A stretch of 64,000 nucleotides of DNA from Escherichia coli (GTDB lineage Bacteria > Pseudomonadota > Gammaproteobacteria > Enterobacterales > Enterobacteriaceae). This document shows positions 38,032 to 41,700 of this stretch, piece by piece. Each line of letters starts with the position of its first letter. The first letter of the stretch is position 1. The stretch lies in the NCBI RefSeq assembly GCF_044647545.1, contig NZ_CP172818.1. One strand, given 5' to 3'. Under the pieces are notes generated by a model, which was not told where the DNA came from, did not search any database, and worked only from the letters and a program-made list of their open reading frames with translations. Both the position numbers and the translations under genes were made by a program.

Positions 38032-38763
38032 TTAGGGGGCATGGAAGATGACTTTATAACCTTGCTCACCCCAGTGTTGTAAAAGTTCGTTTTGCCTTCT
38101 CGTTGGTGCCATGCCTGTCCAGACAATTAATGTTTGCGTCGGGAACAGTTCCGGGCGCGGCGATTCAATGGGATCAGCAAGAACAGAAATGTGCCATCCT
38201 GACAATGATAAACGCCATGCTTCCAGCCACAATCGTGCTCTCTCTTCAACATTCCACGCCATCAGAATGGCTTCTTTACCGGGCTTACGGCGCATTTCGA
38301 AAAGCGAGGCTGCTGCGTATTCAATTAATGCGCCGTCAAACATACTGCTCATAATGCGGGAGGTGTTGTGATCAAGCACGAGACGCTGGCGAACAGGAAG
38401 GTAAACATGATTAATCAATTGATCTACTGGGTACTCTCGGCCCAGTGAAATAATTCTCGCGCGTAGTTTGGCAGGATTAGCCATACGAAGAATTGACATC
38501 ATCTCTTCTTGCAGGCGGCTCCAGTCATCTTCCGTATCCTGGCTGGTGGTTTCCAGTAATGCTTTAACTTTGCCTACAGGGACGCCATTACTTATCCAAC
38601 GCTTGATCTCTTCGATGCGTTGTATGTCTTCTTCATCAAAGAGTCGGTGTCCGCCTTCACTGCGCTGTGGTTTTAACAAACCGTAGCGGCGTTGCCAGGC
38701 CCGGAGAGTGACAGGATTAATCCCGCAACGTTCAGCAACATCACCAATGCTGTAATAAGCCAC
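38032..38763 (-). CDS. bluR: MerR-family transcriptional repressor BluR
   Basis: 243-aa ORF; N-terminal MerR HTH ([30 protein letters not shown]). Confidence 0.85.
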
Positions 38764-38967
38764 AATTCCTCCTTGCGGTCACAAATCTCCGTCGCCTGTA
38801 CACGACCCAATAATACTTTGTACAATATACGCTAAAATTGTACAAAGTATAAATAAGATTTCAGCTAAATTGAATGAAACATTATTTTTAATGTGGATTA
38901 AATTTAAACATAACGTATTCATTTTCACGATGATTTTCAGAAATCATACGAAATAATGTGCTGGAAA

Positions 38968-40179
38968 TTATTTTTTCTCCGGCCACGCAACTGAAGGGAT
39001 ACCATTCAATTTAGCTTTCGCAAACAGATCTCCCTGAAACATCTCAATTCCTGCAGATTCAAGCCACATCCACTCTTCTGGTGTTGTCACACCCATAGCA
39101 GAGACTTGAATTTCAAGTGATGTACAGCATTTTATGATCGCTTGAATAATTGCCTGCCGTGGCCCGCTTTTATGAACATTGGTAATCAATTCCTGACTGA
39201 TTTTAATTCTGTCAGGCTGGAAGCGTGACAGGAGTAACAAACCGGCAAAACCTGCGCCAAAATGATCAATTGCTACACTGATACCGGCAGCCTTAAGCGA
39301 TTTAATCGCTTCTGCAAACTCATCAAACCGAGATATGACTTCACTTTCAGTAAATTCAACGATGATTTGTTCAGGCACCAGAGCATTGGCCTTTATTTCA
39401 TCAAGTAAAAAAGAGACTGCGTCAGGTTCGTTAACCAGGGTCATAGGTAATAGATTGATTGAAATCATTTTATCACCGAGCTCAAGTGCGTGTGCCATCG
39501 CGAATGCAAGCGCCTTACTTTTGAGATCCGCTGTATAGATTTCCCCGTCTTTACGCTGCCCAACCGCTATAGCTGATGGGCTATCTTCATTTTTTTGCAC
39601 AATGGCTTCAAAAGCGATTATCCGCCGCGATAAGGGATCGACAATAGGATGAAAGGCAAAGTGGTCGTTTATAGTTGGTGAAAGGGTACAGGAATCAAGT
39701 TCTTTATCAGATCCGTCAGCGATAAAAAGCCAGGAGTCTTCGGCAGGGATCTCGAAATAGGTTGCTTGTTCGGTTGCAAGGACAAAAGTACGAAAAAATT
39801 GTAGCGCTCTGTCATCATAAGTTAGCTGAAATTTTGATGTGCCTTTGTCGAATACGGCCTGTAAAACGTCATCTCGCTCGTGCAGGCGCAAATCAAATAA
39901 TTCCATTCCCGCTTTGTCAAAACGGCGAGCAGGCGCGTAATCGCACATCAGCTCAACAATATTATAGTGCCGTGGATCCTGGCATATAGCCCGATATATC
40001 ATTTTAACCTGTTCTTCCGGACCTTCCAGAAGCTGGAAAAAATGAGAACCATTAAACAGTAAGATCCCTGTTACGTCAGACAGCATGTTCCTGCGATTTG
40101 CTATCGAAACCATTTCTTCGATTTTTTTGACAGGTTCGTCGTCACGTATATGGCTACGATAAATAAGGGTGGTAAGCAT
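38968..40179 (-). CDS. bluF: blue-light sensor BluF (BLUF domain plus degenerate EAL domain)
   Basis: Start MLTTLIYRSHI gives 403 aa; BLUF N-terminus and EAL-like C-terminus; ORF track extends further upstream. Confidence 0.85.
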   Translation of the reverse strand: MLTTLIYRSHIRDDEPVKKIEEMVSIANRRNMLSDVTGILLFNGSHFFQLLEGPEEQVKMIYRAICQDPRHYNIVELMCDYAPARRFDKAGMELFDLRLHERDDVLQAVFDKGTSKFQLTYDDRALQFFRTFVLATEQATYFEIPAEDSWLFIADGSDKELDSCTLSPTINDHFAFHPIVDPLSRRIIAFEAIVQKNEDSPSAIAVGQRKDGEIYTADLKSKALAFAMAHALELGDKMISINLLPMTLVNEPDAVSFLLDEIKANALVPEQIIVEFTESEVISRFDEFAEAIKSLKAAGISVAIDHFGAGFAGLLLLSRFQPDRIKISQELITNVHKSGPRQAIIQAIIKCCTSLEIQVSAMGVTTPEEWMWLESAGIEMFQGDLFAKAKLNGIPSVAWPEKK

Positions 40180-40492
40180 TAACTGTCCAGGGTAATGGGA
40201 GAGGCGAGAGTAAGACGGTAACAGACATATCTTCCGGTGTCTTTCTTTTAATACCAAAACATAACTGTTTCTTTACATTGATAAAAAATGGAAAAAGTTG
40301 AAGATGAGTTGGCGAAAATTTTTGTATAGGTTGTTATTTAAATGATGCAATATTTTTTATCATAACCTGTTGTTTTGTATGTATTAGCACTAAATGCAAA
40401 AAATTAATTTATCATTTTGTACACATATTTCGTACAAGTTTGCTATTGTTACCTCACTTAACATTGATTAACATTTTTAACAGAGGCGTAGC

Positions 40493-40729
40493 ATGCATCA
40501 AAATTCAGTGACTTTAGATTCTGCGGGAGCAATCACTCGTTACTTTGCAAAAGCTAACTTGCCTACTCAGCAGGAAACTCTCGGAGAAATTGTGACTGAG
40601 ATTTTGAAAGATGGACGTAATCTGAGTCGAAAGTCGCTTTGTGCCAAACTTCTAGGTCGACTGGAACAAGCGACAGGGGAAGAGGAACAGAAACATTATA
40701 ATGCACTAATTGGGTTGCTTTTTGAATAA
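40493..40729 (+). CDS. ycgZ: small protein YcgZ (connector of the ycgZ-ymgABC operon)
   Basis: 78-aa ORF, first of four small same-strand genes. Confidence 0.75.
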   Translation: MHQNSVTLDSAGAITRYFAKANLPTQQETLGEIVTEILKDGRNLSRKSLCAKLLGRLEQATGEEEQKHYNALIGLLFE

Positions 40730-40771
40730 TGCAACAGCCTGATTATTTAACAGGTTAGCTATGAAGTCGTT

Positions 40772-41044
40772 ATGAAGACATCTGATAATGAAAGTACAAA
40801 ATATGAAATTACTGGCCAGGCGGTGCTCCAGATACTGCGCATGAAGATAAATTTTTCGTTGCAGACTCTTATTAAGCAATTACTCGTAATGAAATCTGTT
40901 GAGGAAAATGCTTTCCGACGAGATTTAATTGACAGCATAATTCGTGATTTTAGTAACAGTGATACAGGAGGGCCAAACAGAAGAACAGCGATAACTGACA
41001 ATAAAAGTATTTTCAATGGTAAGAAAATAAACAGAATACATTAA
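40772..41044 (+). CDS. ymgA: small protein YmgA
   Basis: 90-aa ORF. Confidence 0.75.
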   Translation: MKTSDNESTKYEITGQAVLQILRMKINFSLQTLIKQLLVMKSVEENAFRRDLIDSIIRDFSNSDTGGPNRRTAITDNKSIFNGKKINRIH

Positions 41045-41072
41045 AATTTCATAAGTAAGATGAGAGGTTACT

Positions 41073-41339
41073 ATGCTTGAAGATACTACTATTCATAATG
41101 CAATAGCTGATAAAGCGTTATCAAGTTACTTTCGCAGTTCGGGTAATTTGTTAGAAGAAGAGTCAGCTGTGTTAGGGCAGGCTGTCACCAATTTAATGCT
41201 TTCAGGCGATAATGTTAATAATAAAAATATTATCTTAAGTCTGATACACTCCCTGGAAACAACAAATGATATCCTCAAAGCTGATGTGATCAGAAAAACA
41301 CTGGAAATCGTGTTGCGATACACAGCGGATGATATGTGA
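41073..41339 (+). CDS. ariR: regulator of acid resistance and biofilm AriR (YmgB)
   Basis: 88-aa ORF; paralogous in sequence to the ymgA product. Confidence 0.75.
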
Positions 41340-41451
41340 CTTTTAATTATTAAGTATAAATTTATAGAAAACTCATTCATCTTATTTTTGTCTGTCGCTT
41401 TAGACTATACACAGCATAATTTTATTGGGTTAATATTTCTACGAGGCTGAC

Positions 41452-41700
41452 ATGAATAATTCAATCCCAGAGAGATTTATTTTGCAATGTGCTTTGTTTA
41501 AAAATCTCGAGAGGGAGGTGTTCATGACGCATGGGTATGTTGATAGTTATATTATTGATCAGGCTTTACGCTTGCGTTTAAAAGATGAAACCAGTGTGAT
41601 TCTTTCTGATCTCTATCTGCAAATATTGCAGTACATTGAAATGCATAAGACTACACTAACGGATATCATTATTAATGACAGGGAATCCGTGATCTCTTAG
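41452..41700 (+). CDS. ymgC: small protein YmgC
   Basis: 82-aa ORF. Confidence 0.7.
   Translation: MNNSIPERFILQCALFKNLEREVFMTHGYVDSYIIDQALRLRLKDETSVILSDLYLQILQYIEMHKTTLTDIIINDRESVIS

Follow-up and report, generated by a model that had tools for sequence, protein, structure and literature searches.

The blue-light circuit built on BluF and BluR has been described in E. coli K-12, in which BluF antagonizes the repressor BluR in a light-dependent manner and YcgZ, YmgA and AriR activate Rcs (PMC3509220, PMC6900184). The operon encoding these small proteins has been linked to Rcs signalling, biofilm formation and acid resistance (PMC3509220, PMC6900184, PMC5491885). BluR recognizes GTACA, and its operator at ycgZ has been both footprinted and mutagenized; the protein also binds the MlrA box of csgD, and bluR and bluF are separate transcription units rather than an operon (PMC3509220). 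In excess, BluR is toxic. BlrP1 of Klebsiella pneumoniae (PDB 3GFX) has the same two-domain architecture and length as BluF and is a light-activated BLUF-EAL c-di-GMP phosphodiesterase, whereas BluF works by protein-protein contact and is the textbook case of an enzyme domain (EAL) turned into a protein-protein signalling module. MlrA is an activator that acts under the c-di-GMP enzymes PdeR and DgcM, whereas BluR is a repressor antagonized by BluF. Finally, autorepression is known in the MerR family, for example by MerR at its own divergent promoter.

In the 64,000 nucleotides of E. coli DNA analysed here (the window), a sequence-only reading had described six genes in a divergent layout, with the four small genes in an AT-rich block, and had assigned them to the known BluF/BluR circuit. 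All six open reading frames are indeed found at the coordinates and on the strands that it gave, from the stop codon of bluR (38032) to that of ymgC (41700), with bluR and bluF on the minus strand and ycgZ, ymgA, ariR and ymgC (40493-41700) on the plus strand. Over 37300-42100 there is 100% identity to E. coli ECONIH1 and to other chromosomes, in which the gene names are the same. This segment is also colinear with K-12 b1162-b1167: genes, order, strands and spacer lengths are shared, gene-by-gene identity is 95-99% and the proteins are 91-99.6% identical. The G+C content of 0.32-0.39 across 40200-41800, compared with 0.47-0.50 in bluR and pdeG, agrees with the AT-rich block. The layout is that by which Tschowri et al. 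2012 defined the module: bluF, with its degenerate EAL domain, adjoins bluR and is divergent from a ycgZ-ymgAB-like operon, and the synteny bluR-bluF/ycgZ-(ymgA)-ariR is kept in 63 of 80 Enterobacterales loci. This cross-species set was obtained from a scan of genome contigs; a protein search for BluF relatives gave almost solely Citrobacter among the matches listed. The layout is not a chance pattern; of 5426 complete E. coli genomes, 5092 contain this conserved, annotated locus. Gene identity, domains, and operator and promoter sequences all match the assigned circuit, and in the strain of the window the locus is almost certainly an intact copy of the BluF/BluR circuit for blue light and low temperature known from E. 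coli. As such it is a well-studied and previously known system, which is ordinary here and brings nothing new in itself.

It could be argued that this strain has kept a decaying remnant of the locus in which at least one gene is inactivated, as about 6% of complete E. coli genomes lack it, IS1 or IS903B insertions occur at the locus in some E. coli genomes (one of them splitting bluF), and the small genes and control region are the parts most diverged from K-12. However, the six reading frames are full length, with starts and stops positioned as in K-12, conservation extends to the operator, promoters and ribosome-binding regions, and many unrelated isolates carry an identical segment, so that decay is extremely improbable. 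The surroundings differ in one respect: in K-12 the e14 prophage lies about 1 kb beyond iraM, whereas the window lacks e14.

The bluR (ycgE) gene (38032-38763, minus strand) was placed from its reading frame, its Pfam matches and the annotation of the identical ECONIH1 segment, and encodes 243 amino acids from a GTG start. BluR is a MerR-family, MlrA-paralogous repressor, as had been proposed in part, with matches to MerR_1 (67 bits), MlrA_helical (101 bits) and MlrA_C (111 bits). It thus combines the N-terminal MerR helix-turn-helix with the MlrA-type helical and C-terminal domains that mark the BluR/MlrA subfamily, and a GTACA operator lies in its target promoter. All three domains and the 243-residue length are shared with MlrA; yet BluR scores 268 bits against an MlrA equivalog cutoff of 417, and is therefore not MlrA. 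Of its 243 residues, 242 are identical to K-12, the sole substitution being T152A.

The neighbouring bluF (ycgF) gene (38968-40179, minus strand) encodes 403 amino acids from the annotated ATG, with a BLUF domain at residues 2-92 (PF04940, 84.4 bits; cutoff 25) and an EAL domain at residues 173-388 (PF00563, 167.8 bits; cutoff 31.3). The sequence-only reading had made its case dependent on the flavin-binding residues of the BLUF domain, and these are present. When BluF is aligned to BlrP1, BlrB and a bPAC-type photoactivated adenylyl cyclase (5mbj/5m27), its photocycle and flavin-pocket residues are Y7 (the strand-1 Tyr), N31 (the flavin-contacting Asn), Q49 (the strand-3 Gln) and M92 (the strand-5 Met), and the photocycle residues are identical to those of BlrP1. 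The semi-conserved Trp position is A90, presumably as in K-12, since no substitution is listed there. BluF in this strain is predicted to bind flavin and to undergo the light-induced red shift.

The EAL domain is a different matter. BluF aligns with BlrP1 over its full length (41% identity, E 2e-98), its Pfam EAL match is strong, and E191, N242, E275, E278, D305, K326 and Q382 are still present, all of which might favour an active, light-regulated c-di-GMP phosphodiesterase and a locus that works via c-di-GMP rather than by BluR sequestration. However, at the eight positions for c-di-GMP and Mg2+ binding and catalysis that were named by Tschowri et al. 2012 (PMC3509220), BluF has H177, I193, Q195, T247, H306, S328, M362 and T365 in place of the Q, L, R, N, D, D, E and E of active EAL domains, and so is degenerate at 8 of 8. 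BlrP1, in contrast, has the consensus residue at all eight (for example EALIR, the DD pair and EGVE, where BluF reads EAIVQ, DH and MGVT). Purified BluF of the K-12 allele neither hydrolysed nor bound c-di-GMP, and restoring all eight positions gained neither activity nor binding (PMC3509220). The allele of the window departs from that of K-12 at just one of the eight, T365 for A365, a position that was already degenerate and at which neither residue is the consensus E. In total it carries nine substitutions relative to K-12, of which Q33L, L78M and G88D fall within the BLUF domain. Enzymatic activity of BluF is therefore very unlikely, and as the consensus catalytic, Mg2+-binding and substrate-binding residues are replaced, we have filed BluF as a degenerate EAL protein and not as an enzyme.

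Between bluF and ycgZ lies the divergent control region (40180-40492), which was defined from published start-site distances and alignment to K-12. A sigma-70 consensus scan gave 12 sites, compared with 11.5 in shuffled sequence, so promoter placement relied instead on the published distances of 30 nt (bluF) and 36 nt (ycgZ) (PMC3509220), which map the transcription starts to about 40209 on the minus strand and about 40457 on the plus strand, respectively. The BluR operator, TGTACA-N7-CGTACA (40418-40436, plus strand), overlaps both the -35 element and the spacer of the ycgZ promoter; among the dyads that precede ycgZ in 63 species, N7 is the most frequent hexamer spacing (48 dyads). On the same strand are an RcdA box, TTGTACACA (40417-40425; PMC3535384), the extended -10 element TGCTATTGT (40441-40449) of the sigma-S/sigma-70 ycgZ promoter (PMC3509220, PMC6900184), and a marbox, or MarA site (40383-40403; PMC6900184), whose centre lies about 62 bp before the start of ycgZ transcription. 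The spacer differs from K-12 at 23 of 313 positions, none of them in a core element except for one marbox base, an A at 40394. At ycgZ, no difference from K-12 is seen in the operator, the extended -10 element or the 5' untranslated region, and the bluR promoter and its 5' untranslated region are likewise identical. A marbox-like 'tagcac...gctaaaa' element is visible in many of the 63 species.

Gene identity, domains, photocycle residues, EAL degeneracy and operator and promoter sequences were read from the DNA here, and the mechanism is taken from the K-12 literature. On this basis, BluR would occupy the ycgZ promoter at its -35 element and spacer until blue light is sensed by BluF via its flavin-binding BLUF domain. 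The EAL domain, devoid of the residues for c-di-GMP catalysis, would then bind BluR and pull it off the DNA. The derepressed YcgZ, YmgA and AriR would act on RcsC and switch on the Rcs phosphorelay, which in turn would lower curli production and raise colanic acid and acid-resistance functions; MarA, RcdA, SrsR and sigma-S would provide further inputs. To this scheme we would add one step, in which light-driven release of BluR may also raise its own synthesis and so form a negative feedback loop.

That step comes from a dyad at the bluR promoter, the sole potentially useful outcome of this analysis. A perfect 14-nt inverted repeat, ATACTTTGTACAAT / ATTGTACAAAGTAT (38813-38850), with its arms 10 nt apart, carries cores of TGTACA, a motif recognized by BluR and MlrA, at 38819-38824 and 38839-38844 and lies across the core promoter of bluR, about -33 to +5. 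The sigma-70 promoter itself (38824-38853, minus strand; -35 TTTATA, 18-nt spacer, -10 TATATT) was located by consensus scan, and the published transcription start, which lies 54 nt before the GTG (PMC3509220), maps to about 38817. A third TGTACA hexamer in the 5' untranslated region (38797-38802) is TATACA in O157:H7. The inverted repeat is the same in K-12 and O157:H7, of the 4971 E. coli records that match its segment, 4202 do so at 100% identity, and the 64-kb window contains two TTGTACAA sites, both of them in this repeat. Furthermore, 60 of the 63 Enterobacterales species have a TGTACA dyad at the matching distance from the start of bluR, with the downstream hexamer ending 44-63 nt (mostly 53-60) before that start; the background is 7 dyads in 324 kb of flanking DNA. 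The cross-species consensus is TTGTACAA-N11-TTGTACAA, and the hexamer spacing at bluR is N12-N14.

We read this palindrome as a candidate operator, either for BluR autorepression or for cross-control by MlrA. One possible reading, which we put forward tentatively, is that the conserved TTGTACAA-N11/12-TTGTACAA dyad is an undescribed auto-operator, through which BluR would repress its own synthesis. The palindrome, its rarity and its conservation suggest such feedback, as do the recognition of GTACA by BluR, its binding to the csgD MlrA box and its toxicity. Against this, the hexamers at bluR are spaced at N12-N14, compared with N7 in the footprinted ycgZ operator. With MerR-type autorepression, judged from what is known of the family, the feature in common would be a dyad operator over the regulator's own core promoter; the difference is that at bluR the candidate auto-operator and the target operator would be two sites, about 1.6 kb apart and unlike in hexamer spacing.

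MlrA or another factor could bind the dyad, in which case bluR would be cross-regulated and not autoregulated, or the palindrome may have no protein partner; this too is a possibility that we regard as doubtful. The 18-20 bp between hexamer centres is nearer to the csgD MlrA box (TTGTACA-N12-TGCACAA, or TGTACA-N12-TGCACA as hexamers; PMC3509220), which resembles the bluR-promoter dyad written as TTGTACAA-N12-TTGTACAA, than to the N7 operator of ycgZ. In addition, Pantoea loci without an adjacent bluR have N13 dyads upstream of an ariR-like gene. However, BluR does bind that same csgD box (PMC3509220), and the dyad accompanies bluR, keeping a constant distance to the start of the gene. For RcdA and SrsR, binding nearby is known, but as candidates for the palindrome both were set aside: it does not fit the RcdA box TTGTnnACA, and an SrsR-box-like sequence is found elsewhere, at 39245-39255.

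The papers covered do not describe this dyad, and a search for BluR autoregulation yielded nothing relevant; the bluR-promoter site may already be known from the founding paper of 2009. That paper, Tschowri et al. 2009 (Genes Dev 23:522), reportedly used ycgE::lacZ fusions. If the dyad is an operator for BluR or MlrA, it would introduce a feedback or cross-regulatory loop that is missing from current BluF-BluR-Ymg-Rcs models, and would give a better-defined motif for the BluR/MlrA subfamily, with a TGTACA core at two spacings, N7 and N12-14. Were it a BluR auto-operator, blue light acting via BluF would derepress bluR as well as the ycgZ operon; the light response would then contain its own negative feedback and adapt, and the cell would be protected from a toxic excess of BluR. 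Were MlrA to bind there instead, curli control would be linked to BluR levels.

At the RNA level, an Rfam scan of 35500-44500 at E <= 1 found no known RNA element, with two sub-threshold matches (tpke11, 26 bits; sR23, 18 bits). A simple terminator scan and RNA folding gave no convincing intrinsic terminator or attenuator in the ariR-ymgC spacer or after ymgC, bluR or bluF (Z-scores +1.85, -0.84, -0.45 and -2.24).

The four small genes all lie on the plus strand. The first of the operon, ycgZ (40493-40729, 78 amino acids), matches the NCBIfam YcgZ_fam equivalog at 122.6 bits (cutoff 80) and its product has three substitutions relative to K-12. The second, ymgA (40772-41044, 90 amino acids), was identified from its position and from 91% protein identity to K-12 YmgA, from which it differs at 8 of 90 residues; YmgA has no Pfam or NCBIfam match, and its profile similarity to AriR is weak. 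The third, ariR (ymgB; 41073-41339, 88 amino acids), matches Pfam YmgB at 89.3 bits, and 63 of 64 residues agree with those of the solved structure 2OXL. When the four small proteins were compared with one another by BLASTP, no match emerged, and the kinship of YcgZ with AriR was seen by profile-profile comparison alone (probability 94%); YcgZ also scores 26.9 bits against the YmgB/AriR family PF10798 (cutoff 22.3). The values for YmgA (61%) and YmgC (46%) in the profile-profile comparison with this family are suggestive at most. The last gene, ymgC (41452-41700, 82 amino acids), shows three substitutions relative to K-12, and its in-operon homologues are limited to Citrobacter-type loci (L004-L007 and L063) and Kluyvera (L059).

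The six open reading frames lie exactly where the sequence-only reading had placed them: on the minus strand bluR (38032-38763; 243 aa, GTG start) and bluF (38968-40179; 403 aa from the annotated ATG, with the mechanical reading frame extending further upstream, to a TTG), and on the plus strand ycgZ (40493-40729), ymgA (40772-41044), ariR (41073-41339) and ymgC (41452-41700). The interpretation of these genes as the BluF/BluR circuit is also supported: the genes, domains, residues and operator match the K-12 system, which is already known. In K-12, BluR represses the sigma-S-dependent ycgZ promoter; under blue light, chiefly at low temperature, BluF binds BluR and BluR comes off the DNA, and YcgZ, YmgA and AriR act on RcsC, turning on the Rcs phosphorelay, with lower curli production and more colanic acid (PMC3509220; PMC6900184). 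Furthermore, YcgZ affects ompF in a Lon-dependent manner (PMC5491885). All of the sequence features agree, and are consistent with a functional circuit in this strain.

BluR matches the MerR_1, MlrA_helical and MlrA_C domains, and its score against the MlrA equivalog model (268 bits, below the cutoff of 417) is in keeping with an MlrA paralogue and not with MlrA proper. BluF matches the BLUF (84 bits) and EAL (168 bits) domains, and its alignment with Klebsiella BlrP1, a light-regulated phosphodiesterase, runs the full length (E 2e-98). Y7, N31, Q49 and M92 are all kept in an alignment that includes BlrP1, BlrB and a photoactivated cyclase; the loss of flavin-binding residues that would have refuted the sequence-only reading is therefore not seen. 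K-12 BluF is non-consensus at eight EAL positions (H177, I193, Q195, T247, H306, S328, M362 and A365), and restoring all eight did not regain activity and weakened the antagonism of BluR (Tschowri et al., 2012; PMC3509220). Seven of these residues are the same here and position 365 is T, not A; neither is the consensus Glu. Thus, all eight positions are non-consensus, and the EAL domain was rightly called degenerate.

Among the small proteins, AriR shares 63 of 64 residues with the solved YmgB structure 2OXL, and YcgZ scores above the NCBIfam YcgZ equivalog cutoff. YmgA and YmgC matched no family in Pfam or NCBIfam and were assigned by position and by identity to K-12 (91% and 96% respectively). 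With alignments built from 63 related loci, profile-profile comparison gave a probability of 94% for YcgZ and AriR, which, as judged by these profiles, are clearly related; the values for YmgA with AriR (61%) and AriR with YmgC (46%) were weak.

The locus was found in 5092 of 5426 complete E. coli genomes, a match being absent from about 6%, and several E. coli chromosomes match 37300-42100 at 100% identity; in one of them, ECONIH1, the annotated gene names agree with our assignments. The locus is colinear with K-12 b1162-b1167, with equal spacer lengths, nucleotide identities of 94.9-99.3% per gene, and one (BluR), nine (BluF), eight (YmgA) or three (YcgZ, AriR and YmgC each) amino-acid substitutions. 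G+C content is 0.32-0.39 over the control region and small genes versus 0.47-0.50 in bluR and the downstream pdeG. Some E. coli records (among H1, H2, H8 and H9) carry IS1 or IS903B insertions in the locus, one of which splits bluF into two annotated pieces. In this strain the 3' end of icd runs directly into iraM (36126-36704), which indicates the absence of the e14 prophage carried at icd in K-12. A tpke11 sRNA match below the Rfam threshold, immediately downstream of icd (36283-36353, plus strand; 26.4 bits against a gathering score of 43), probably reflects chance or the icd terminator.

In K-12, bluR and bluF are separate transcription units (Tschowri et al., 2012; PMC3509220), and the published transcription starts map to approximately 38817 (bluR), 40209 (bluF) and 40457 (ycgZ). 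The footprinted BluR site, TGTAC...GTACA (PMC3509220), is found as TGTACA-N7-CGTACA at 40418-40436, overlapped by an RcdA box (TTGTnnACA; PMC3535384) at 40417-40425, and a marbox lies at approximately 40383-40403, its centre 62 bp upstream of the ycgZ start (PMC6900184). Relative to K-12, no change is seen in the operator, the downstream extended -10 element TGCTATTGT (40441-40449) or the 5' untranslated region. Within the locus, divergence from K-12 is greatest in the bluF-ycgZ spacer (23 of 313 positions), with differences clustered at approximately 40303-40394, between the two promoters. One substitution falls in the marbox, at what we take to be a non-specific position of its consensus. 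The SrsR-box-like sequence that has been reported for bluR (PMC9181523) falls within bluF (39245-39255).

Scanning genome contigs with the BluF/BlrP1 alignment left 80 loci, all from Enterobacterales; none is from Escherichia, although both search peptides occur in E. coli BluF. In 63 of these, bluF is followed by bluR and the ycgZ-(middle gene)-ariR operon is divergent (genera including Citrobacter, Klebsiella, Enterobacter, Kosakonia, Atlantibacter, Franconibacter, Pectobacterium, Buttiauxella and Leclercia). Two of the other 17 (L029 and L044) end at a contig edge, and in 15, mostly from Pantoea, Mixta and Erwinia, the BLUF-EAL gene has no bluR next to it, in agreement with the evolutionary picture of Tschowri et al. 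(2012; PMC3509220). Within the scanned loci, an in-operon ymgC homologue occurs only in Citrobacter-type loci (L004-L007, L063) and Kluyvera; Klebsiella loci, reported to have no such gene in the operon, carry a ymgC-like ORF past bluR on the opposite (minus) strand, with 37-40% identity (L012 6810-6980, L051 6867-7046, L074 6862-7041). In the 120 nt upstream of ycgZ (L008-L082), most species have three hexamers, TGTACA-N7-TGTACA-N13-TGTATA, the third overlapping an extended -10 element TGTATAAC; in E. coli and Citrobacter, TGCTATTGT or TGCTACTGT has taken its place.

The bluF-bluR spacer contains a perfect 14-nt inverted repeat, ATACTTTGTACAAT (38813-38826) and ATTGTACAAAGTAT (38837-38850), with arms 10 nt apart, covering the bluR promoter from approximately -33 to +5. 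Of the two TGTACA cores in the repeat, one falls within the 18-nt promoter spacer and one between the -10 element and the bluR start; a third hexamer is nearby (38797-38802). The window has 12 TGTACA sites, six of them within 37.9-40.4 kb; dyads made of TGTACA-like hexamers are confined to three window loci (the ycgZ operator, the bluR promoter and one further locus), and both occurrences of TTGTACAA in the 64 kb are in this palindrome. It is unchanged in K-12 and O157:H7, the upstream half of the spacer being variable, and 4202 of the 4971 matching E. coli records show 100% identity over the surrounding 71-nt segment. Across species, a TGTACA dyad precedes bluR in 60 of 63 genes, its downstream hexamer ending 44-63 nt (mostly 53-60; 55 in E. 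coli) before the start codon; by the same criterion, the 324 kb of DNA flanking these loci yields a background of seven dyads. The spacings are N13 (32 dyads), N12 (11) and N7 (13), and the consensus is TTGTACAA-N11-TTGTACAA.

BluR recognizes GTACA and also binds, with lower affinity, the csgD MlrA box, TGTACA-N12-TGCACA (PMC3509220), and elevated BluR is toxic. From these properties and the conservation of the dyad, we infer that the palindrome is a candidate repressing operator, to which either BluR itself or MlrA would bind. The literature searched for BluR autoregulation, which did not extend to the founding paper (Tschowri et al., 2009), contained no description of this dyad, which is a modest, testable addition to a known system; if the operator is real, the circuit would gain negative feedback or cross-control by a paralogue.

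Approximately 90 nt upstream of ycgX (DUF1398) there is a lone half-site, ATGTACAAAGTG (37900-37911), close in sequence to an arm of the bluR palindrome. Finally, in Pantoea wallisii and P. dispersa, where the BLUF-EAL gene has no bluR alongside, an ariR-like gene is preceded by four TGTACA dyads (L069 6107-6380, L070 6153-6426), which suggests that a regulator encoded at another site uses the same type of operator.
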